From an uncultured Dysgonomonadaceae bacterium (lineage in GTDB: Bacteria; Bacteroidota; Bacteroidia; Bacteroidales; Dysgonomonadaceae), in assembly GCA_964542545.1 (NCBI GenBank), contig CAZIUT010000001.1, positions 1 through 46,260 on the forward strand: DNA of 46,260 nucleotides, given 5' to 3'. A program made the translations under genes and the position numbers. Of this stretch, positions 32,901-41,713 are shown one piece after another; the stretch's first letter is position 1, and every line of letters begins with the position of its first letter. The notes below the pieces were generated by a model. That model did not search any database and was not told the DNA's origin. It worked only from the letters and a program-made list of their open reading frames with translations.

Positions 32901-33668
32901 ATCATTGGTGGCAATAATCTTTACATCTAGCTTTTTAGCTATTCTTATGAGCTCTTTGTTTACACGCTCTTGTTTTATATATGTTGTGGCATCTGCATCG
33001 GGTCTGTTTGTCTTGTGACGTTGTAATTCAAGATAGTAGTCGTCTCCAAAGACAGATTTGTACCATTTCACTGCTTCCTCAGCCTCCTCTATTTCGCCGT
33101 TGTCAACTTTCCTTGAAATCTCTCCACCCAAACAGGCTGAGCTAATAATTAACCCCTCGCTGTGCTTTTCCAACAGTTCTTTATCAATACGTGGACGATA
33201 ATAGAAGCCCTCTGTCCAACTTTTAGATACTATCTTGATAAGATTTTGATAACCTTTAAAGTTTTTTGCCAAAACAACCAAGTGCCATCCACTACTGTCA
33301 ACTCTGTCTTTTTGTTGAAATCTATCTCTGCGTGCAAGATAGCATTCACAGCCAATAATTGGTTTGAAAAGACTCTTCTGTTCAAGTGCAAGTTTATCTG
33401 TTAGTAGTTGTTGTTTTGTTTTATCTGTGTTGTCTTGTTGAATCTTTTTCAGTTCGTTTTTTATTTTTTTTATTTTAGATTTAACAGGACCGTTTTTCTT
33501 GTTTACATAGTTCACAAAATCCTTCACACCGTACATAACTCCATGGTCTGTAAGAGCCAAGGCAGTCATACCATCATCTATGGCTTTGTCTACCAAGCGT
33601 TTTATGCTTGCTTGACCATCGAGTAGAGAGTATTGAGAGTGAACGTGAAGGTGTACAAATGGCTGCAT
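29928..33668 (-). CDS. dnaE: DNA polymerase III subunit alpha
   Basis: 1246 aa. PHP domain FVHLHVHSQYSLLDG. Polymerase core PDIDVDF, GLIKMDFLGLKTL and RPGPM motifs. Confidence 0.97.
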   Translation of the reverse strand: MQPFVHLHVHSQYSLLDGQASIKRLVDKAIDDGMTALALTDHGVMYGVKDFVNYVNKKNGPVKSKIKKIKNELKKIQQDNTDKTKQQLLTDKLALEQKSLFKPIIGCECYLARRDRFQQKDRVDSSGWHLVVLAKNFKGYQNLIKIVSKSWTEGFYYRPRIDKELLEKHSEGLIISSACLGGEISRKVDNGEIEEAEEAVKWYKSVFGDDYYLELQRHKTNRPDADATTYIKQERVNKELIRIAKKLDVKIIATNDVHFVNEEDADAHDRLICLSTGKDFDDPNRMRYTKQEWLKTTAEMNQVFSDMPEVLSNTLEIAEKIEHYSIDHDALMPFFPIEDSFGTEEEYKTRYCEESLIEEFGKKVFKRLGGYDKVIRIKLESDYLAHLTYIGAKKRYGENFSNDIKERLDFELETMKTMGYPGYFLIVQDFINAARKMDVAVGPGRGSAAGSAVAYCLGITDIDPIKYNLLFERFLNPDRVSMPDIDVDFDDEGRDTVLHWVTNKYGKENVARIITYGTMATKSAIKDVARVQKLPLAEADRLTKLIPERIPGKKVNLKTSIEYVPELKAATRSDNPIVRDTLKYAQMLEGNVRSTGVHACGVIISQTDISDIVPMSTANDKTTKEKLLVTQYDGSVIEETGLIKMDFLGLKTLSIIKSAIENIEHTTGDRIDINKIDLEDAKTYELYSQGKTSGTFQFESAGMQKYLKELKPTKFEDLIAMNALYRPGPMDYIPSFVARKHGREEISYDLPIMKEYLDETYGITVYQEQVMLLSRLLADFTRGQSDELRKAMGKKMIDQMNTLKEKFLEGGRKNGHEGKVLLKIWSDWEKFASYAFNKSHATCYSWIAYQTAWLKANFPSEYMAAVLSNNLNNITEITKFMDECRSMGMNVLSPDVNESFFKFSVNKEKDLRFGLAAIKGVSNSAVKVIIEEREKNGHFADVFNFVERVPVSACNKKTLESLALAGAFDSLSDITREQFFATNDKDETFIDTLIRYGSKFQEDQNTTMNSLFGDDFSMQIETPQIPTATPWTDLEKLNKERDLIGIYLSAHPLDDYELILKYVCNTSTSDLADLDKMNGREVTFGGMVSSTREGQTRRGSPFTIFKIEDYSGSFEIALFGDDSINYGKFARPGLSLFIKGRVQTRRYDQSQFEFKINSIQLLTDVKDSLLEKLTIQMPLTEITTESVQDLSALLKNNSGNTLLYFHVHGAEPHLNLELFARNSKIAVTSKLVNYLKGNEAIKFKVN

Positions 33669-33708
33669 GTCAGTATTTTATATAAGTAGTTGTTGTTTTT
33701 AATTCATA

Positions 33709-33716
33709 CAAATATA
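33709..33716 (-). promoter_or_regulatory. Bacteroidota -7 box for dnaE
   Basis: The plus strand reads caaatata, which is TATATTTG on the minus strand, 41 nt upstream of the dnaE start. Confidence 0.45.
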
Positions 33717-33908
33717 AGTTTTTTATTGCTACTTTCAGACTAGATTTTCAAATTACTTGTTAACATGCTACTATCAGTTATGGACTCTCTTAGTTGTGAG
33801 AGTTTTAGGTAGGGACTGTTTTTTTAGGGCTGTTTAAACAATAAAAAGGGCTGACTCTTTCAAGCCAACCCTTTTCTTGTAACGAAATAGTGTCTACATT
33901 TAAAATAG

Positions 33909-35450
33909 TTATGCAGAAACTCTCTCAAGCCATTTCAACATAAATAACATTGTAAACATTGATATGAGACATGCTGCAACAAATACCATCCATGTAGCCC
34001 AGATTGGGATGCTTTCATAAAATATTGTTCCAAATATTAATAATTGGTTGCCTAGTGCTGTAGCACCAAGCCATGCACCTTGCATAATACCTTGATATTG
34101 TGGGGGAGCAACTTTTGAAACAAATGAAAGGCCTAGCGGACTAATAAATAGCTCAGCTACTGTGAGTATAAAATAAGTTCCAATTAGTAATAAAGGAGTA
34201 ACCCTTTGAGCAGTGTCTAGTCCTCCCATTGCAGTAACTTCTGATGCACTTGGCAAGCCTAAAGAACCTAATGCCATAACCGCAAATGCACTTGCGGCAA
34301 TGCCCATTCCTATAGCAATTTTCTTAGGTGTGGAGGGCTCCATGCCTTTAGCTTTTAGCCAACCAAATAAACCAATAATAATAGGTGTTAAGAAAACAAC
34401 AAAGAAAGGATTGAAGAACTGAAATATCTCAGCACCTTGAATAGAAGTAAAGCCTAGATCGATATTGATCATGCTTAGGTTGGTATAGTCATTCGCGAAA
34501 AATGTGAGTGTAACTCCATTTTGATGAAACGAGAACCAGAAGAAAATAACCACTGCAAAAACTGCAAATAGAGCATATAGTCTTTGACGAACTTCGTCAG
34601 TGCTCATTTCTACAATTACAGGTTCATCTTTTGTTCTTGCTTCTTTAATAACTTTTTGTGCTGGATCGGGTAAGTCTTTTTTATTTTTAAGCCACACTAC
34701 AATCGAAATCAACATGGCGAAAATAGCTATGCCAAACGCATAGTGGAATCCTTTGTTAAAGACGTCAAGGTATTGGTTAGCAAAAGACATTAGGTCATTT
34801 TGGACAGTGGTGCTAACAGTCGTAGAGAGTTCTGCAAAACGAGCTCCTGCTTCAGGAGAAAGAGTCCCTTTGATGTATCCGTGGCATAAGGCAGGCAGAT
34901 CTGGGTTGTATGCAAAGCCATTGCGTTGCACCCACCAGTTACGAATTCCAACTGCCAATAGAGGAGCAAAAAGAGCCCCTACATTAATAAACATATAGAA
35001 GATTTGAAAACCTGTATCTCGTTTGTCTGCATATTTTGGATTGTCGTACATTTGACCAACAACAGCTTGCAAGTTCCCTTTAAACAGACCATTACCAAAC
35101 GCAATAACAAAAAGTCCAAAACAGGTCATTGCTAAGTAAACAGCAAAGTGGGGCACAGGCGTTGGTGAGGGGATAGCAATTAAGGCGTATCCAACGGTCA
35201 TCATAATAAGACCTGCCAGAATAGTTCCTTTATACTTCTTAGTTTTGTCGGCAATAAGTCCGCCAACAAGTGCTAAGAGATAAATTAAGGCATAAAAAAC
35301 TGAATAGATAATGGTTGCAGGAGTTTTTTCCAAACCAAACTTTGACATAAGGAATAGCGAAAGAATCGCCATCATTATGTAAAATCCGAAGCGTTCGCCC
35401 ATGTTTGAAAGGGCAGCTCCAACTAATCCTTTAGGATGATTTTTAAACAT
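33909..35450 (-). CDS. Proton-dependent oligopeptide transporter (POT/PTR2 family, MFS)
   Basis: 513 aa. GERFGFYIMMAILSLFL and GGLIADK POT signatures, with about 14 hydrophobic segments. Confidence 0.88.
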   Translation of the reverse strand: MFKNHPKGLVGAALSNMGERFGFYIMMAILSLFLMSKFGLEKTPATIIYSVFYALIYLLALVGGLIADKTKKYKGTILAGLIMMTVGYALIAIPSPTPVPHFAVYLAMTCFGLFVIAFGNGLFKGNLQAVVGQMYDNPKYADKRDTGFQIFYMFINVGALFAPLLAVGIRNWWVQRNGFAYNPDLPALCHGYIKGTLSPEAGARFAELSTTVSTTVQNDLMSFANQYLDVFNKGFHYAFGIAIFAMLISIVVWLKNKKDLPDPAQKVIKEARTKDEPVIVEMSTDEVRQRLYALFAVFAVVIFFWFSFHQNGVTLTFFANDYTNLSMINIDLGFTSIQGAEIFQFFNPFFVVFLTPIIIGLFGWLKAKGMEPSTPKKIAIGMGIAASAFAVMALGSLGLPSASEVTAMGGLDTAQRVTPLLLIGTYFILTVAELFISPLGLSFVSKVAPPQYQGIMQGAWLGATALGNQLLIFGTIFYESIPIWATWMVFVAACLISMFTMLFMLKWLERVSA

Positions 35451-35806
35451 AGATTGTGACTTAATTGGTTATTAATTCTGTTAATCTCTACTGTTATTGT
35501 CTTTGTTTCTGTACAAGCCTATTGATTTATTGAGTGTTTAAAACAATATTCAGGTATGTATACTCAAAGATTGAAAAGCTGTAGCTCTCTTTTCTTTTTT
35601 AATTAGTTGCAAATATAAAAATAATTTAATGATTTTCACTGAGTTTTCATCTTTTCTGTTCTTTACACAGTATCAAACTGGGTGTATAAAAGAACTGTCA
35701 ATTTATTTTGAACCAAGTTGGTTAAAGGGTTATGCAGAATAATACTAAAAAATGGCTTTTTGAGAGCTTTTTATTACATTTTGTTGTTGTAAATCAAAAA
35801 AAAGAC

Positions 35807-35814
35807 TACATTTG
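35807..35814 (+). promoter_or_regulatory. Bacteroidota -7 box for the aromatic amino-acid operon leader
   Basis: TACATTTG matches TAnnTTTG. A possible -33 TTTG is at 35780-35783. The predicted transcription start is about 25 nt before the leader ORF. Confidence 0.5.
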
Positions 35815-35843
35815 CAGAGATTATTCACAAAAAAACAGCTGAA

Positions 35844-35909
35844 TTGAAACATTTATTTTCTGCATATAATATCTATTTTTATTTTTACTTTTATTTTTTT
35901 ATAAAGTAA
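35844..35909 (+). CDS. Candidate leader peptide (21 aa) rich in Phe and Tyr codons
   Basis: TTG AAA CAT TTA TTT TCT GCA TAT AAT ATC TAT TTT TAT TTT TAC TTT TAT TTT TTT ATA AAG TAA encodes (M)KHLFSAYNIYFYFYFYFFIK. 11 of the 20 residues after the start are F or Y, including nine consecutive F/Y codons (35874-35900). There is no in-frame ATG, so the TTG start is assumed. Confidence 0.5.
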   Translation: MKHLFSAYNIYFYFYFYFFIK

Positions 35910-35970
35910 GACAGGATTAGATATGCGAAAGTGAAAATATAAACATACATCATACTATTTAAATCCTGTC
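35910..35970 (+). promoter_or_regulatory. Candidate antiterminator pairing of the attenuator
   Basis: gacaggatt (35910-35918, starting directly after the leader stop codon) is the exact reverse complement of aatcctgtc (35962-35970), which is part of the left arm of the terminator. Confidence 0.5.
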
Positions 35971-35993
35971 GAGTATCTCGGCAGGATTTTTTT
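35961..35993 (+). terminator. Attenuator terminator 32 nt upstream of pheA
   Basis: aaatcctgtcgag (35961-35973) pairs with ctcggcaggattt (35977-35989): 13 bp including one G-U, loop tat. It runs into a T7 tract (35987-35993). The pheA ATG is at 36026. Confidence 0.7.
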
Positions 35994-36025
35994 ATATGAC
36001 TCATACAATATAAAGAACAAACAAA

Positions 36026-36871
36026 ATGAAAAAGGTAGCTATTCAAGGAGGTCTAGGAGCTTATCACGATATAGCAGCTCGAAATTATTTTTCTGACTAT
36101 GAGGTAAGCATCTTGCCTTGTATTACTTTCCGTGATATTTTTGCTGAAGCAGAAAAAGATCCTTCATTAATTGGTGTCATGGCTATTGAGAATACTATTG
36201 CAGGAGGATTGTTGCCGAATCATGATTTGTTGAAATTAAACAACTTGTGGATTGCAGGTGAATGTAAACTTCGCATATCGCATTGTTTAGCAGCTCTTCC
36301 TTCCCAGTCCCTCTCAGACATTAGAGAGGTTACTTCACATCCAATGGCACTTATGCAGTGTGATAGTTTTTTGGATACTATGGTCAACATTAAGATAGTT
36401 GAGCACGAAGACACAGCGCTTGCGGCTAAAGAAATATCCGAAAATAATTTACTGGGAGTTGCAGCTATATGTAGTGATTATGCGGCCAAGCTTTATGGAT
36501 TAAATGTGTTGACCACAGAAATTGAAACTAACAAACATAACTATACTCGTTTTCTAGTTTTGGCGCAAAAGGAAATGCTTGCCGATTTGCAGAAAGAATG
36601 TAAGATAAATAAAGCATCGCTCGTTTTTGTGCTTCCTCATAATCAGGGTAGTCTGTCGCGGGTGCTTTCTGTGTTATCATTTTACGATATTAATCTCACT
36701 CGCATACAGTCACTTCCTATTATTGGGCGAGAGTGGGAATATCAATTTTATATAGATCTCGTATTTTCTGACTATAACAGATACAAACAGTCAATTGAAG
36801 CAATAATGCCGTTGGTTGCAGATTTGAAAGTGCTTGGTGAATATAGCAAGGGTAAGAACATAGATATTTAA
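36026..36871 (+). CDS. pheA: Prephenate dehydratase
   Basis: 281 aa. PDT domain (IENTIAGGL, NYTRFLVL) plus a C-terminal ACT-like domain (GSLSRVLSVLSFYDINLTRIQS). Confidence 0.88.
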   Translation: MKKVAIQGGLGAYHDIAARNYFSDYEVSILPCITFRDIFAEAEKDPSLIGVMAIENTIAGGLLPNHDLLKLNNLWIAGECKLRISHCLAALPSQSLSDIREVTSHPMALMQCDSFLDTMVNIKIVEHEDTALAAKEISENNLLGVAAICSDYAAKLYGLNVLTTEIETNKHNYTRFLVLAQKEMLADLQKECKINKASLVFVLPHNQGSLSRVLSVLSFYDINLTRIQSLPIIGREWEYQFYIDLVFSDYNRYKQSIEAIMPLVADLKVLGEYSKGKNIDI

Positions 36872-36883
36872 TTTTTTAAAAAA

Positions 36884-38062
36884 ATGATACATAATAAGTC
36901 AATAGAACCAGCAGACCATGTTAAAAATATTTCTGAATATTACTTTTCTGTTAAGCTGAAAGAAGTTGCAAGAATGAATGCAGCGGGAGAAGATGTAATT
37001 AACTTAGGAGTAGGGAGTCCTGATTTACCCCCTTCACAGGATGTAATAGATGAACTATGTGAAGCTGCTTCATGTATTGATAATCATGGATATCAACCAT
37101 ACACAGGAATTCCTGAATTGAGAAAGGCTTATGCAAGTTGGTACGGTAGGTCGTACAATGTTGAGCTTTCCATTTCAGAAGTGCTTCCTCTCATTGGCTC
37201 CAAAGAAGGAATTATGCATATTTCTCTTGCATTTCTTAATGCAGGCGATGGTGTTTTAGTTCCCAATCCTGGTTATCCAACCTATACATCAGTTTCTAAA
37301 TTGGTGGGTGCTAATGTAATCTCTTATGATTTAGTTGAATCGAATAACTGGATGCCTAATTTTGAAGCATTAGAGAAAATGGATCTTTCCGGTGTAAAGC
37401 TTATGTGGGTAAATTATCCAAATATGCCTACTGGTGCTAATGCAAGTATTGAACTATTTAAAGAATTAGTAGCTTTTGGTAAAAGACATTCTATTATAAT
37501 CTGTCACGACAATCCGTATAGTTTTATTCTTAACGATAAACCTTTAAGTATATTACAAGTGGAGGGAGCAAGAGATATTTGTATTGAATTGAACTCTATG
37601 AGTAAATCTCACAATATGGCCGGTTGGCGAATGGGTATGCTTGCTTCTAATGAACAGTTTGTTGAGTGGGTGTTGAAGGTGAAAAGCAATGTAGATAGCG
37701 GTCAGTTTAGACCAATGCAAATGGCAGCCATTAAGGCTCTAGAAACTCCTAAACAATGGCACGACAATATGAGCCTGCTGTATGATCAGCGGAGACTTTG
37801 GGCATTCAAAATAATGAATATTTTGGGTTGTAAATATAAAACAAATCAAGTTGGTCTATTTGTATGGGCTAAGATTCCAGATTATGAAACAAGTAGTGAG
37901 GATTTGATAAATGGCATATTAAAAAATGCACGTGTTTTTATCACCCCAGGTTTTATCTTTGGGAGTAACGGAAGGAGATATATTCGTATATCATTAGGCA
38001 GTTCAGCTATCAAAATTAAAGCGGCTTATGAAAGAGTTGCCGATTATTTAGTAAGTAGATAA
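36884..38062 (+). CDS. Class I/II PLP-dependent aminotransferase (probable aromatic/prephenate aminotransferase, from context)
   Basis: 392 aa. NPGYPTY and NSMSKSHNMAGWRMG (PLP-Lys motif). It is 12 nt downstream of pheA. Confidence 0.82.
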   Translation: MIHNKSIEPADHVKNISEYYFSVKLKEVARMNAAGEDVINLGVGSPDLPPSQDVIDELCEAASCIDNHGYQPYTGIPELRKAYASWYGRSYNVELSISEVLPLIGSKEGIMHISLAFLNAGDGVLVPNPGYPTYTSVSKLVGANVISYDLVESNNWMPNFEALEKMDLSGVKLMWVNYPNMPTGANASIELFKELVAFGKRHSIIICHDNPYSFILNDKPLSILQVEGARDICIELNSMSKSHNMAGWRMGMLASNEQFVEWVLKVKSNVDSGQFRPMQMAAIKALETPKQWHDNMSLLYDQRRLWAFKIMNILGCKYKTNQVGLFVWAKIPDYETSSEDLINGILKNARVFITPGFIFGSNGRRYIRISLGSSAIKIKAAYERVADYLVSR

Positions 38063-38077
38063 CCAATAATAAAAAAT

Positions 38078-39163
38078 ATGAAAATAAAATCAATTTTACT
38101 ACCAGGTGTAGATGAAAAACGTCCACTTATTATAGCCGGACCGTGTAGCGCAGAAACAGAAGAGCAAGTAATGCAGGCAGCCAGAGAGCTTGCGTCAAAC
38201 GGAGTTATGATGTTTAGAGCAGGTATTTGGAAGCCACGTACTAAGCCTGGAGGTTTTGAGGGAGTTGGATTACCTGGGCTAAAGTGGCTGCAACGTGTGA
38301 AAGAAGAAACAGGAATGTATGTAGCTACTGAAGTGGCTACAGAAAAGCATGCATATGAGGCACTTAAACATGGTGTTGATATGCTTTGGATTGGTGCTCG
38401 CACCACAGCCAACCCATTTGCTGTGCAGGAAATTGCCAATACATTACAGGGTGTGGATATCCCCGTATTTATCAAAAACCCTGTAAATGCTGATTTGGAG
38501 CTTTGGATAGGTGCTTTTGAGCGTCTTAACAATGCTGGTATAACCCGCTTAGGGGCTATTCATCGTGGTTTTAGTACAGCTGACAAGAATATTTACCGCA
38601 ATCTTCCGCAATGGCATATTCCAATAGAGTTAAAAAGACGTTTTCCCAATCTACCCATTCTTTGCGATCCTAGTCACATTGGAGGTGCTCGTGAGTTGAT
38701 AAAAACAATTTCGCAACAGGCAATGGATTTAAATTTTAAGGGTTTAATCATTGAGTCTCATTGCAATCCTGAAGATGCATGGAGCGATAGCAATCAGCAA
38801 ATTACTCCACAAGAGTTAAAGAGGGTTTTGCAGTCACTTGTCATTAGAGAGACTACGCAATCAACAGAAGATTTGTCGGACTTGCGTGATCAAATTGATG
38901 AAATAGATAACAGTCTGTTGGAGTTGTTAAGCAAACGTATGCGCGTATCACGCGAAATTGGCACATATAAGATAGAGCATAAGATGCCAATCTTACAAAC
39001 TGGCCGTTATGATGAGATTTTGACTAACAGGGTAACCCAAGCTGAGAATATGGATATGTCAGGCAGTTTTGCAAAGAAGTTTCTTGAAGCTATTCATGAG
39101 GAGTCTGTACGTCAACAAATGGAGGTAATGCATTCAGAAAACCAAAATGATATTCTAGACTAA
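38078..39163 (+). CDS. Bifunctional 3-deoxy-7-phosphoheptulonate (DAHP) synthase, type I-beta / chorismate mutase type II
   Basis: 361 aa. N-terminal AGPCSAE...RAGIWKPRT...CDPSH DAHP/KDO8P-synthase motifs. C-terminal LRDQIDEIDNSLLELLSKRMRVSREIGTYK is a chorismate mutase helix. Confidence 0.85.
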   Translation: MKIKSILLPGVDEKRPLIIAGPCSAETEEQVMQAARELASNGVMMFRAGIWKPRTKPGGFEGVGLPGLKWLQRVKEETGMYVATEVATEKHAYEALKHGVDMLWIGARTTANPFAVQEIANTLQGVDIPVFIKNPVNADLELWIGAFERLNNAGITRLGAIHRGFSTADKNIYRNLPQWHIPIELKRRFPNLPILCDPSHIGGARELIKTISQQAMDLNFKGLIIESHCNPEDAWSDSNQQITPQELKRVLQSLVIRETTQSTEDLSDLRDQIDEIDNSLLELLSKRMRVSREIGTYKIEHKMPILQTGRYDEILTNRVTQAENMDMSGSFAKKFLEAIHEESVRQQMEVMHSENQNDILD

Positions 39164-39239
39164 CATTTGAAAAGCAGTAAAGGCTATTTGCCTGAAAAAA
39201 AGAGAGCAAACTGCTAAGTAAATCATAATAACATTAATA

Positions 39240-40013
39240 ATGAAAATACTAATAATAGGGGCTGGTAAGATGGGGTCATTTTTTGCTGATCTGTTGAGCT
39301 TCGATCACGAGGTTGCTTTGCTAGATACCAATCCAAGGAAGTTGAGATTTATCTACAATACTCAACGAATGACTTTGGCCGAAGAAGTAGAGGTTTTTGA
39401 CCCAGAAATGGTTATAAATGCTGCGACTCTAAATTATACCATCGAGGCTTTTGAATCTGTTTTGCCTTATATATCTCAAACATGCATCTTGTCGGATATT
39501 GCATCGGTAAAAACCGATTTGAAAATGTTTTACACCAATGCGAAACGCCCTTTTGTTAGCACTCATCCTATGTTTGGACCTACCTTTGCTAGTCTCAATG
39601 ATTTAAGCACACAAAGTGCCATTATTATTTCAGACTCTGATCATATGGGGAAGGTTTTTTTTAGAGATTTATATAGTCGCATCAAGCTCAATGTATTTGA
39701 ATACTCATTTGAAGAGCATGATGAGACAATTGCTTATTCTCTATCTATCCCTTTTGCATCTACACTGGTGTTTGCTTCAGTTATGAAGCATCAAGATGCT
39801 CCAGGTACAACTTTCAAACGACACATGAGTATTGCCAAAGGCTTGCTATCAGAAGATGACTATTTGCTTTCCGAGGTTCTATTCAACCCCTACACATATA
39901 GTCAGGTGGAGTGTATTCGGGAGAAATTGAAAGAGTTGCTCCATATTATAAAAGAAAAAGATAGCGAAAGCATGAAGCTGTTTCTTACAGATGTTAGAAA
40001 GAACATTGAGTAA
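39240..40013 (+). CDS. tyrA: Prephenate dehydrogenase
   Basis: 257 aa. MKILIIGAGKMGSFFADLL Rossmann motif and STHPMFGP motif. Confidence 0.8.
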   Translation: MKILIIGAGKMGSFFADLLSFDHEVALLDTNPRKLRFIYNTQRMTLAEEVEVFDPEMVINAATLNYTIEAFESVLPYISQTCILSDIASVKTDLKMFYTNAKRPFVSTHPMFGPTFASLNDLSTQSAIIISDSDHMGKVFFRDLYSRIKLNVFEYSFEEHDETIAYSLSIPFASTLVFASVMKHQDAPGTTFKRHMSIAKGLLSEDDYLLSEVLFNPYTYSQVECIREKLKELLHIIKEKDSESMKLFLTDVRKNIE

Positions 40014-40025
40014 ACCTTGCTTTAG

Positions 40026-40709
40026 CTATACTATACACCCTCTCAATATTTCTCTTTTGCCTGGAGGTCCAGGTAGTCTTTCCATAGTGAAGCCTGCTGA
40101 TTGGAGCATTCTCCTTACCTCACCTTTAGCGCAATAGGTAGTGATAATGGCGTTTTTATTGCAAAGCGAAAATAGTTTGTCAAATATCTGCTGGGTCCAC
40201 ATTTCCGGTTGTTTCTCAGGTGCAAATGCATCAAAATAGATTACATCAAAACGTGAGTCGGTCTTTAGATTATCAGGGTTGCTAAAATCTGTTTTTATCT
40301 TATGCAAAGTAAACATAGAAGTTACATCAACAGCCTCACCCCATGCAGCTTGATGCAAAGCCAGAAACTGTGTAGCATTGTCATCTTTGGTTAGTTGTTG
40401 AACATAGTTTAATTGTTTTGTCCTCTTTATGCATAGAGGATATAGTTCCAGCGAGGTGTAATGTATTTGCTTCTCATTATTTTCAGATTCTAACAGTGTT
40501 AGAAAAGCGTTGAGCCCAGTGCCAAATCCTATTTCTAAAACATTTATTTTTTGCAGTTCGCAAGCATTAAGTCCTGCGTTGATATAGACATGACGCGACT
40601 CTTGAATAGCTCCGTGAGTAGAATGATAGTGTTCTTCTAGGTGAGGTACATAAAAAGAGTGCGAACCATCTTCTGTTGTAATCAGCTGTGTGTGTAATTG
40701 TGCATTCAT
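40026..40709 (-). CDS. mnmD: tRNA (5-methylaminomethyl-2-thiouridine)(34) methyltransferase, stand-alone MnmC methyltransferase domain (MnmD-like)
   Basis: TEDGSHSFYVPHLEEHYHSTHGAIQESRHVYI...ILEIGFGTGLN...YFDAFAP motifs. Start set at ATG 40707-40709 rather than the longest ORF. Confidence 0.8.
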   Translation of the reverse strand: MNAQLHTQLITTEDGSHSFYVPHLEEHYHSTHGAIQESRHVYINAGLNACELQKINVLEIGFGTGLNAFLTLLESENNEKQIHYTSLELYPLCIKRTKQLNYVQQLTKDDNATQFLALHQAAWGEAVDVTSMFTLHKIKTDFSNPDNLKTDSRFDVIYFDAFAPEKQPEMWTQQIFDKLFSLCNKNAIITTYCAKGEVRRMLQSAGFTMERLPGPPGKREILRGCIV

Positions 40710-40738
40710 AAATGAGTGTTTTTTGAAGAAATAAAAAA

Positions 40739-40746
40739 CAAATGTA
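40739..40746 (-). promoter_or_regulatory. Bacteroidota -7 box for mnmD
   Basis: The plus strand reads caaatgta, which is TACATTTG on the minus strand, 30 nt upstream of the start at 40709. Confidence 0.4.
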
Positions 40747-40787
40747 CAAATTTCTACTATATACATTGCCGAAAGTATAATCTTTGC

Positions 40788-40795
40788 TAAATTTG
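40788..40795 (+). promoter_or_regulatory. Bacteroidota -7 box for the metal ABC transporter genes
   Basis: TAAATTTG, 40 nt upstream of the ATG at 40835. Confidence 0.5.
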
Positions 40796-40834
40796 CAACT
40801 TGCTACAAACACAAATAAACAAACTAGGTTTTCA

Positions 40835-41713
40835 ATGAAACATTATATATTTCTTCTCACTCTGTTGTCTTTTATTGGTTGTAATTTGGCAGACAACAAT
40901 AAATCAACAGTATCTGTTACAATTGAGCCACAACGTTATTTTGCGGAAAAGATTGTTGGCGACAACTATAACGTAAATACTATTGTACCTCCAGGAACAA
41001 GTCCTGAAACTTACGACCCAACTCCATCGCAAATGGTGGCGCTAGGAAAAAGTGATCTGTATTTTAAGGTGGGATACTTAGGTTTTGAAAACGCATGGGG
41101 AGAGACTCTTGCAGAGAATAATACAGGAGTTGTAGTTGTGAATACATCAAACGAAATTCCTCTTATAGAGGGAGAAAATCTTGAGAATGTAATAGGTGGA
41201 CACCAACATCATGATGGACACAACCATCAAGGTGTAGACCCTCATGTATGGAGCTCGCCCAAAAGTGCCCTCATTATGGCTGAAAACATGCTTAACGCAG
41301 TGGTGATGGCTGATGTTGAGAATCAAAAGCTATATCGGAAAAATTTCAAGACGTTGCAATCAGAAATAGTAGAAACTGACAAAATAATCACTTCATTGTT
41401 GGAGAATGCTCCAGTGAAGTCTTTTATTATTTATCATCCTGCATTGGCTTATTTTGCACGCGACTACAATTTGACTCAATATAGCATTGAATTTGAAGGA
41501 AAAAGTCCATCGCCCCAACAGCTGAAGCAGATGATTGACTTTGCACGCGAGCAAGGAGTTAAAAATATATTTGTGCAAAAAGGTTTTGATACAAAAAATG
41601 CTGAGTCGCTTGCCAAAGAGATAGGAGCTTCCATTCACTCTATCGACCCTCTATCGTATAATTGGAGCGAAGAATTGATAAATATTGCAGAAATACTATC
41701 TAAAAATGAATGA
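40835..41713 (+). CDS. znuA: Metal ABC transporter substrate-binding lipoprotein (TroA/ZnuA cluster A-I) with His-rich loop
   Basis: Lipoprotein signal MKHYIFLLTLLSFIGC. His-rich insert GGHQHHDGHNHQGVDPHVW, typical of zinc-specific ZnuA. Start set at ATG 40835. Confidence 0.8.
   Translation: MKHYIFLLTLLSFIGCNLADNNKSTVSVTIEPQRYFAEKIVGDNYNVNTIVPPGTSPETYDPTPSQMVALGKSDLYFKVGYLGFENAWGETLAENNTGVVVVNTSNEIPLIEGENLENVIGGHQHHDGHNHQGVDPHVWSSPKSALIMAENMLNAVVMADVENQKLYRKNFKTLQSEIVETDKIITSLLENAPVKSFIIYHPALAYFARDYNLTQYSIEFEGKSPSPQQLKQMIDFAREQGVKNIFVQKGFDTKNAESLAKEIGASIHSIDPLSYNWSEELINIAEILSKNE

Follow-up and report, generated by a model that had tools for sequence, protein, structure and literature searches.

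The leader of an aromatic amino-acid operon was analysed on a 46,260-nt stretch of DNA from an uncultured Dysgonomonadaceae bacterium (GenBank assembly GCA_964542545.1, contig CAZIUT010000001.1, positions 1 to 46,260). This whole stretch, with a G+C content of 36.9%, is called the window below. Judged from sequence comparison and structure modelling, the leader is very probably a ribosome-mediated (leader-peptide) transcription attenuator, tying the operon of pheA, an aminotransferase, a DAHP synthase/chorismate mutase (DAHPS/CM) and tyrA to the supply of charged tRNA-Phe and tRNA-Tyr. Found together upstream of pheA are a leader open reading frame (ORF), cognate codons within it, a terminator, an antiterminator sharing the 5′ arm of the terminator, a 1:2 pairing, and a geometry in which a ribosome at the stop codon or stalled in the ORF would mask different segments. 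From this arrangement we infer translation of the leader ORF, ribosome stalling, a premature 3′ end and a response to Phe and Tyr. Sensing of both amino acids fits the operon, because it holds pheA for the Phe branch, tyrA for the Tyr branch, a shared aminotransferase and the entry and branch-point enzyme DAHPS/CM.

Anatomy of the leader

Leader and locus features were read directly from the window sequence; all leader features lie on the plus strand. A preliminary description of this DNA had listed a promoter box, a short ORF, a complementary segment and a terminator hairpin, and each of these was present as given. The -7 promoter box, of the Bacteroidetes type (TAcaTTTG, consensus TAnnTTTG), is found at 35807-35814, and transcription would start at about 35821, some 7 nt past the box. 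Following a box-to-start distance of 29 nt, the leader ORF of 21 codons and a stop, (M)KHLFSAYNIYFYFYFYFFIK, runs from TTG at 35844 to TAA at 35909. It contains a run of nine consecutive Tyr/Phe codons (YFYFYFYFF, 35874-35900), with additional F/Y codons at 35856 and 35865. A T/G-rich stretch, tttgttgttgtaaat, followed by an A run, is located at 35780-35800, 17-23 nt 5′ of the -7 box, and occurs also in the closest relatives, L005 and L006; it may be a -33 TTTG promoter element.

Directly 3′ of the stop codon, GACAGGATT (35910-35918) has its exact complement in AATCCTGTC (35962-35970), within the 5′ arm of an intrinsic terminator. This terminator (35961-35993, -18.3 kcal/mol) consists of a 13-bp stem with a 3-nt loop (hairpin at 35961-35989) and a U run, seven T in all at 35987-35993. 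The pheA start at 36026 lies 32 nt beyond the T run.

Four segments can be assigned. Segment 1 (35852-35867, from the minimum free energy (MFE) fold) is the 5′ arm of an anti-antiterminator helix, P1, and lies within the leader ORF, directly 5′ of the F/Y run. The P1 3′ arm, AUAUGCGAAAGUGAA, is found at 35921-35935 and is common to the extended antiterminator. Inner 1:2 pairings join the stop-codon region and the segment-2 GGAU (35903-35917) with U-rich F/Y codons and AUCU (35871-35885) in the fold. Segment 2 (35910-35925) is the 5′ arm of the antiterminator, with a core, GACAGGAUU, at 35910-35918 and an extension at 35919-35925 overlapping the P1 3′ arm. Segment 3 (35953-35973) comprises the antiterminator 3′ arm (35953-35970) and the terminator 5′ arm (35961-35973). 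In the window, the antiterminator thus pairs 35910-35918 with 35962-35970 and then 35919-35925 with 35953-35960. On the present model, the layout is the classic scheme of a 1:2 anti-antiterminator, a 2:3 antiterminator and a 3:4 terminator.

Compared with the preliminary description, the 9-bp core of the antiterminator is retained, and the helix is longer than was proposed, as it extends into the P1 3′ arm. Similarly, the two helices of the proposed switch are both conserved, and the switch as drawn was incomplete, lacking the third conserved helix P1 (35852-35867 with 35921-35935).

The features of the leader are beyond chance expectation. Relative to dinucleotide shuffles its fold scores z = -4.66, 35400-36200 holds two terminator-like sites where 0.2 were expected, and a 9-nt perfect complement to the terminator 5′ arm within the 140 nt upstream arose in 13 of 20,000 shuffles.

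Distribution of the leader

Relatives of PheA were sought using one genome per species, which yielded 80 loci with PheA 57-87% identical, from Dysgonomonadaceae, Proteiniphilum, Fermentimonas, Petrimonas, Dysgonomonas, Tannerellaceae, Paludibacter and Azobacteroides. A profile search detected exactly one copy of the leader, immediately preceding pheA, in 79/80 loci, two of which are cut by contig ends; no second copy was detected in the window or in the related loci. Loci with the element include those of culturable bacteria, for example Dysgonomonas, Proteiniphilum acetatigenes and Seramator thermalis (L034, L013, L057 and L063). The alignment used below (A1) holds 78 leaders, namely that of the window and those of the 77 related loci with the entire leader region. 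The sole related pheA locus without the element, L030 (uncultured Petrimonas), lies at a contig end and offers only 150 nt of upstream DNA, with no evident resemblance to the leader; an insertion, a rearrangement or a genuine loss may account for this.

A protein homologue search with PheA gave only close relatives, at least 71% identical. One metagenome scan was carried out with the pattern TTTTAYTTYTAY...GGGATT...AATCCC (loci L081-L199), and further true examples were only L147 and L165, with PheA 55% and 59% identical, respectively. P1 of L147 has a different sequence. Another match, L142, was rejected as a chance match. Most matches of the scan were GGGGATT/AATCCCC repeat arrays, many on contigs of closely related record series; these are an artefact of the chosen pattern, unrelated to the leader, and look like eukaryotic (ciliate-type) telomeres.

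The leader ORF as a probable coding frame

A start codon opens the F/Y frame at the homologous position in all 78 sequences (ATG 59, GTG 14, TTG 5), and substitutions at this position are limited to these three codons. An upstream ATG in each of the other two frames occurs in only 1/78. The preliminary description had cautioned that the F/Y frame has no start other than a TTG and that all frames of the T-rich tract are Phe-rich. Both statements are correct for the window; yet the same alignment position is mostly ATG or GTG elsewhere, and the F/Y frame opens with a start throughout. The conserved, in-frame, F/Y-rich short ORF that it had proposed to look for, start codon included, is present in all 77 related loci with a full leader.

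The modal length of the ORF is 18 codons (52/78), and 77/78 sequences have TAnnTTTG no more than 80 nt ahead of the leader start codon, with a median box-to-start distance of 28 nt. The consensus peptide is M-x4-F-[AT]-[YF]-x-F-x-FYFYF-x-[KR], its N-terminal residues being freely variable. All relatives carry F/Y runs of 5-10 codons, in 18 distinct patterns across the alignment (e.g., FYFYF, YFYFYFYF, YFYYYFFYF and YFFFFYFYF) built from TTT (273), TAC (164), TAT (58) and TTC (37). The amino-acid identity is therefore kept while nucleotides change. The frame-specific start, the interchange of codons and the spacing from the promoter box point, as far as sequences can tell, to a translated leader that contains regulatory codons, and speak against a U-rich binding site.

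A Trp codon directly 5′ of the run (FWFYFYF) occurs in 17/78 leaders, in the Proteiniphilum/Fermentimonas group (L008, L009, L017, L018, L020, L022, L027, L028, L034-L036, L038, L039, L041, L042, L044 and L080); the window leader is without it. In such lineages Trp-tRNA would be sensed too, and all three aromatic amino acids may thus be monitored.

Helices and covariation

The three helices were tested by pair counting on the alignment. Paired cells make up 98.3% of the terminator (columns 166-177 with 187-198), in which double changes occur at 169:195 (AU 52, GC 18), 175:189 (UA 47, CG 21), 176:188 and 177:187. For the antiterminator (columns 98-110 with 166-177) the value is 88.3%, and pair types vary at 100:175 (AU 30, GU 27, GC 21), 102:173 (AU 69, GC 6) and 99:176 (GC 37, AU 6). 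Compensatory changes are thus found in both helices for which the preliminary description had suggested looking for them. P1 (columns 42-51 with 111-121) has 87.8% of cells paired and double changes at 7/10 pairs, such as 46:116 (GC 39, AU 22) and 51:111 (UA 40, CG 18). At column 46, the G-to-A change, which replaces Ala by Thr in the peptide, is matched by a change in the non-coding partner and therefore argues for RNA pairing in P1.

Taken as composites, P1 plus antiterminator has 88.1% of cells paired, with double changes at 12 pairs, and P1 plus terminator has 93.5%. Column shuffles reached the observed values in 0/500 cases for both composites, and slid controls were 35-54% paired. Two mutually exclusive helices on one common strand, segment 3, predict three-way covariation between segments 2, 3 and 4, as is seen: the 21 sequences with C in column 175 have G at both partner positions, as do the 6 with C in column 173.

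A small hairpin, P2 (UUUAC with GUAAA), joining the last F/Y codons with the stop-codon region, was predicted by RNAalifold across the alignment and is probably part of the 1:2 structure. Coexistence of P1 and the antiterminator as a pseudoknot was considered and rejected, as the AUAUG/GUAUGU nucleotides are common to both in most sequences according to per-sequence folds; P1 and the extended antiterminator are treated as alternatives in the model.

Folding energies

Mean energies over the 78 sequences are balanced, with -16.5 kcal/mol for the antiterminator, -16.4 kcal/mol for the terminator and -18.4 kcal/mol for the 1:2 (ORF-to-P1) structure. Corresponding values for the window are -14.0, -18.3 and -20.4 kcal/mol, and its full-length MFE fold is P1 plus terminator. 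The antiterminator core is present in the MFE fold of the stretch from stop codon to segment 3 in 77/78 sequences. In 59/78 the antiterminator takes up at least three of the six core nucleotides in the P1 3′ arm, pairing them with the stretch just 5′ of segment 3, and in Dysgonomonas the antiterminator is a continuous helix of ~17 bp taking in the P1 3′ arm. In folds of the naked leader the segment-2 core is mostly paired back onto the ORF in all 78 sequences. The full transcript, folded at equilibrium, invariably yields the terminator, as expected; the choice of the switch must therefore be kinetic, and full-length energies are uninformative on regulation.

Ribosome spacing

The stop codon is located 1-3 nt 5′ of the segment-2 core in 67/78, and the last F/Y codon starts 13-16 nt 5′ of this core in 76/78. 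In the 11 leaders outside these 67 (L040, L057, L060, L063, L064, L066, L067, L071, L072, L075 and L077) the usual stop codon is missing, and an ORF of 24-26 codons continues across segment 2, its stop falling within the P1 3′ arm or close by. Segment 2 would still be covered by a ribosome at the end of such an ORF, so that the model holds with a different release point.

Masked folds were computed with a 30-nt ribosome footprint and a transcript reaching the end of segment 3, and describe geometry only, not occupancy. The antiterminator core was formed in 77/78 with the ribosome on the first codon of the F/Y run, in 76/78 with the ribosome mid-run, in 41/78 on the last F/Y codon and in 1/78 on the stop codon. 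The proposal of the preliminary description, that a ribosome at the stop codon would cover 35910-35918 and one stalled in the run would leave it free, is supported by the conserved spacing together with the covariation, within the limits of the model.

Proposed mechanism and alternative explanations

Transcription would begin ~7 nt after TAcaTTTG, and a ribosome would start on the 21-codon leader ORF. With Phe-tRNA and Tyr-tRNA plentiful, it would reach the stop codon, its footprint lying over segment 2 (35910-35918 and beyond). Segment 2 being masked, segment 3 would pair with segment 4, the terminator at 35961-35993 would form and transcription would stop before pheA. When either charged tRNA is scarce, a stall in the F/Y run (35874-35900) would break the pairs that segment 2 makes with segment 1 and the U-rich codons. 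Segment 2 would then lie past the leading edge of the ribosome and could pair with segment 3 once this is transcribed (35910-35925 with 35953-35970). Formation of the antiterminator would preclude the terminator, and RNA polymerase would enter the operon. Without any translation, the 1:2 structure (P1 and the inner pairings) is expected to hold segment 2, making termination the default.

Several observations weigh against this attenuation model. The sequences are related, so the covariation counts correspond to a handful of independent events, not 78; two P1 mismatches occur in some close relatives (L005, L006 and L043), and P2 shows one-sided changes only, with no double changes. The window's own start codon, TTG, is a weak start. 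The near absence of the antiterminator core with a ribosome on the stop codon follows largely, by construction, from the spacing, the spacing itself being the conserved observation. In equilibrium folds, naked RNA up to segment 3 gives the antiterminator core in 43/78. This result is ambiguous, and default termination without translation therefore rests on the order of co-transcriptional folding and is not settled by thermodynamics. Finally, the FYFYF core is nearly invariant in nucleotides in many lineages, where conservation of RNA sequence and of codons is inseparable.

This last point also bears on a different cause of switching, in which a real switch is set by a small-molecule ligand, by a protein that binds the RNA or by tRNA bound directly as in a T-box, and the ORF is incidental to a U-rich regulatory sequence. 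The almost invariant core, UUUUACUUUUACUUU, could be a binding site, the tract is T-rich, and the alternative helices are themselves silent on what sets the switch. A sequence-specific binding site would not be expected to allow interchange of F/Y codons and synonyms in 18 patterns, and it accounts neither for a start codon in the F/Y frame in 78/78 (ATG in 59, against ATG in 1/78 for each other frame) nor for a stop codon that lies 1-3 nt short of the segment-2 core. Rfam searches at E up to 10 matched no relevant family, T-boxes and riboswitches included. A switch of this kind is considered very unlikely. About equally improbable is a main product with a role in trans, either the short terminated transcript as a small RNA or the 20-residue peptide as a small protein, with attenuation of pheA being secondary. 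The leader would give a stable terminated RNA of ~170 nt (fold z-score -4.66), and rnTrpL and peTrpL of Sinorhizobium are precedents for small RNAs and leader peptides that derive from attenuators and function in trans (PMC6614838, PMC7298713). Against this, conservation is confined to the F/Y codons and the spacing, with a freely variable peptide N-terminus; every copy of the element, one per locus, immediately precedes this same operon; and no target or partner is indicated. Moreover, a role in trans would add to attenuation, not replace it.

It was also considered whether an ordinary terminator, or a structured 5′ untranslated region without conditional behaviour, happens to lie beside a T-rich stretch. 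The low G+C content of the window and the Phe-rich character of all three frames of the tract would favour such a coincidence. The gene upstream is divergent, so the hairpin ends no upstream gene; the 9-nt complement is rare in shuffles; and conservation of the element, with compensatory changes, extends over several families. By this conservation a chance arrangement is effectively excluded. Attenuation by a translating ribosome is retained as the best explanation of the leader.

Operon and neighbouring features

The operon as a whole covers 36026-40013 on the plus strand. Pfam matches bore out the gene assignments made earlier: pheA, prephenate dehydratase (36026-36871); a class I/II aminotransferase (36884-38062); a DAHP synthase/chorismate mutase fusion (38078-39163); and tyrA, prephenate dehydrogenase (39240-40013). 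This gene order is the same in 80/80 related loci, as far as the DNA extends. Within 36000-40200, terminator-like sites are no commoner than in shuffles.

The upstream neighbour, a POT-family transporter gene identified by Pfam (33909-35450), is on the minus strand and thus divergent; the hairpin at 35961-35989 therefore terminates no upstream gene. Weak matches to GibS (RF04182, a Bacteroides small RNA family) were obtained at 33741-33974, with 34.5 bits on the minus strand (gathering score 115; E = 0.071) and 23.3 bits on the plus strand. What aligns is for the most part a G+C-rich hairpin with a U run, located between a 1246-aa ORF and the POT transporter gene, and looks like a bidirectional terminator rather than a GibS homologue.

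Significance

A concrete regulatory mechanism is proposed here for aromatic amino-acid synthesis in Bacteroidales, where such control has been little studied, and an alignment with a three-helix model is supplied for an RNA family missing from Rfam. Bacteroidota have unusual promoters and lack Shine-Dalgarno-led initiation. Leader-peptide attenuation needs ribosomes close behind RNA polymerase; a conserved attenuator with nucleotide-precise spacing would therefore be indirect evidence for coupling of transcription and translation in Bacteroidota. Tentatively, the elements could form one phylum-wide, uncurated Bacteroidota RNA/leader-peptide family, in which an interleaved F-Y(-W) codon array serves as a single multivalent sensor over the whole aromatic pathway (DAHPS/CM and the Phe and Tyr branches), an idea that is possible though doubtful at present. 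If true, the strict conservation would imply tight coupling in a phylum without Shine-Dalgarno-led initiation. Less likely still, the invariant FYFYF-x-[KR] C-terminus might be a nascent-peptide element that modulates stalling or release, instead of a pure codon counter. The element could also be of use in engineering Bacteroidales of the gut and of digesters, as an expression switch that responds to Phe/Tyr.

Comparison with known systems

Searches against Rfam gave no family at gathering score anywhere in the window, and the T-box covariance model was likewise unmatched. Leader families including Phe_leader (RF01859), Leu-phe leader (RF01743) and Bacteroid-trp (RF01692) had no match at E up to 10 in 33000-41000. 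The element is therefore outside these leader families, among which Phe_leader is gamma-proteobacterial, although it would operate in a similar way. A weak hit to SpF11 at 35915-35992 (E = 1.2) was dismissed as resemblance to the terminator only. Attenuators in Bacteroidetes/Chlorobi were reportedly mentioned by Vitreschak and colleagues in 2004; pheA is not known to be among them. A literature search for a pheA leader of Bacteroides or Bacteroidales gave no report, and neither "prephenate" nor FYFYF was found in the supplements of the B. thetaiotaomicron transcriptome paper. Only a supplement on Flavobacterium psychrophilum turned up.

In F. psychrophilum, the pheA 5′ region is annotated as a leader-peptide attenuation element (Guerin et al. 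2021, ISME Commun, PMC9723704, SI D9 and Table S7). The same work reports condition-dependent read-through with expression highest in minimal medium, a mapped transcription start 20 nt before the homologous leader ATG, and conservation in other Flavobacteriaceae without an Rfam hit (PMC9723704). The remark in the preliminary description that no characterised Phe/Tyr leader was known for this type of operon needs qualifying accordingly. When the published 170-nt sequence was compared with the profile of the 78 leaders, its 3′ half (segment 2 to terminator) aligned with E = 1.4e-5, the 5′ (ORF) half being left unaligned by the profile HMM (hidden Markov model), and the equivalent antiterminator folds at -16.2 kcal/mol. 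This makes the elements of the window and of F. psychrophilum homologous and extends the family to two orders of Bacteroidota at least. Shared are the phylum, the start of the operon with pheA and then an aminotransferase, a short ORF with tandem aromatic codons (MNTNNTFYSNNSFYFYWNIGRDCYMVI) and the same segment 2, 3 and 4 sequences (GGGAUUGU..., ...ACAAUCCCGUC and GGCGGGAUUUUUUU). In contrast, F. psychrophilum belongs to the Flavobacteriales and the window to the Bacteroidales, and the leader ORF of F. psychrophilum has 27 codons, includes a Trp codon (the run ends in FYFYW) and reads through segment 2. Its report covers one species, with a remark on conservation in Flavobacteriaceae, and gives no alignment, covariation or alternative-structure model.

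The E. coli pheL-pheA attenuator (Phe_leader, RF01859; PMC3082878) resembles the window element in having a Phe-codon-rich leader ORF upstream of pheA, a terminator/antiterminator alternative and, on the present model, a charged tRNA sensed via the ribosome. In the window leader, unlike pheL, Phe codons alternate with Tyr codons, the promoter is of the Bacteroidetes type and a Shine-Dalgarno sequence is lacking; similarity in sequence or structure is not detectable, with no Rfam match at E up to 10. The window leader would also control a four-gene operon that includes the DAHP synthase/chorismate mutase and tyrA, whereas in E. coli these are in separate units. Multivalent attenuators are present in E. 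coli in the thr operon (Thr and Ile codons) and in ilvGMEDA (Leu, Val and Ile codons). In these, mixed codons represent the amino acids dependent on the operon, and shortage of any one should relieve termination; the leader described here is similar in this respect, and differs in its use of Phe and Tyr (plus one Trp codon in 17/78), in the strict FYFYF alternation and in the lack of homology. The Bacteroid-trp leader (RF01692; Weinberg et al. 2010, PMC2864571), a predicted leader-peptide attenuator in Bacteroidetes, likewise belongs to an aromatic amino-acid operon of this group, but it precedes trp genes, carries Trp codons and has no match in the window. Overall, the mechanism is textbook and a homologue had already been pointed out in Flavobacterium, so that no new principle is involved. 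New here are the distribution in Bacteroidales (79 loci), the predicted 1:2, 2:3 and 3:4 architecture backed by covariation, and the conserved spacing that would suit a ribosome footprint.

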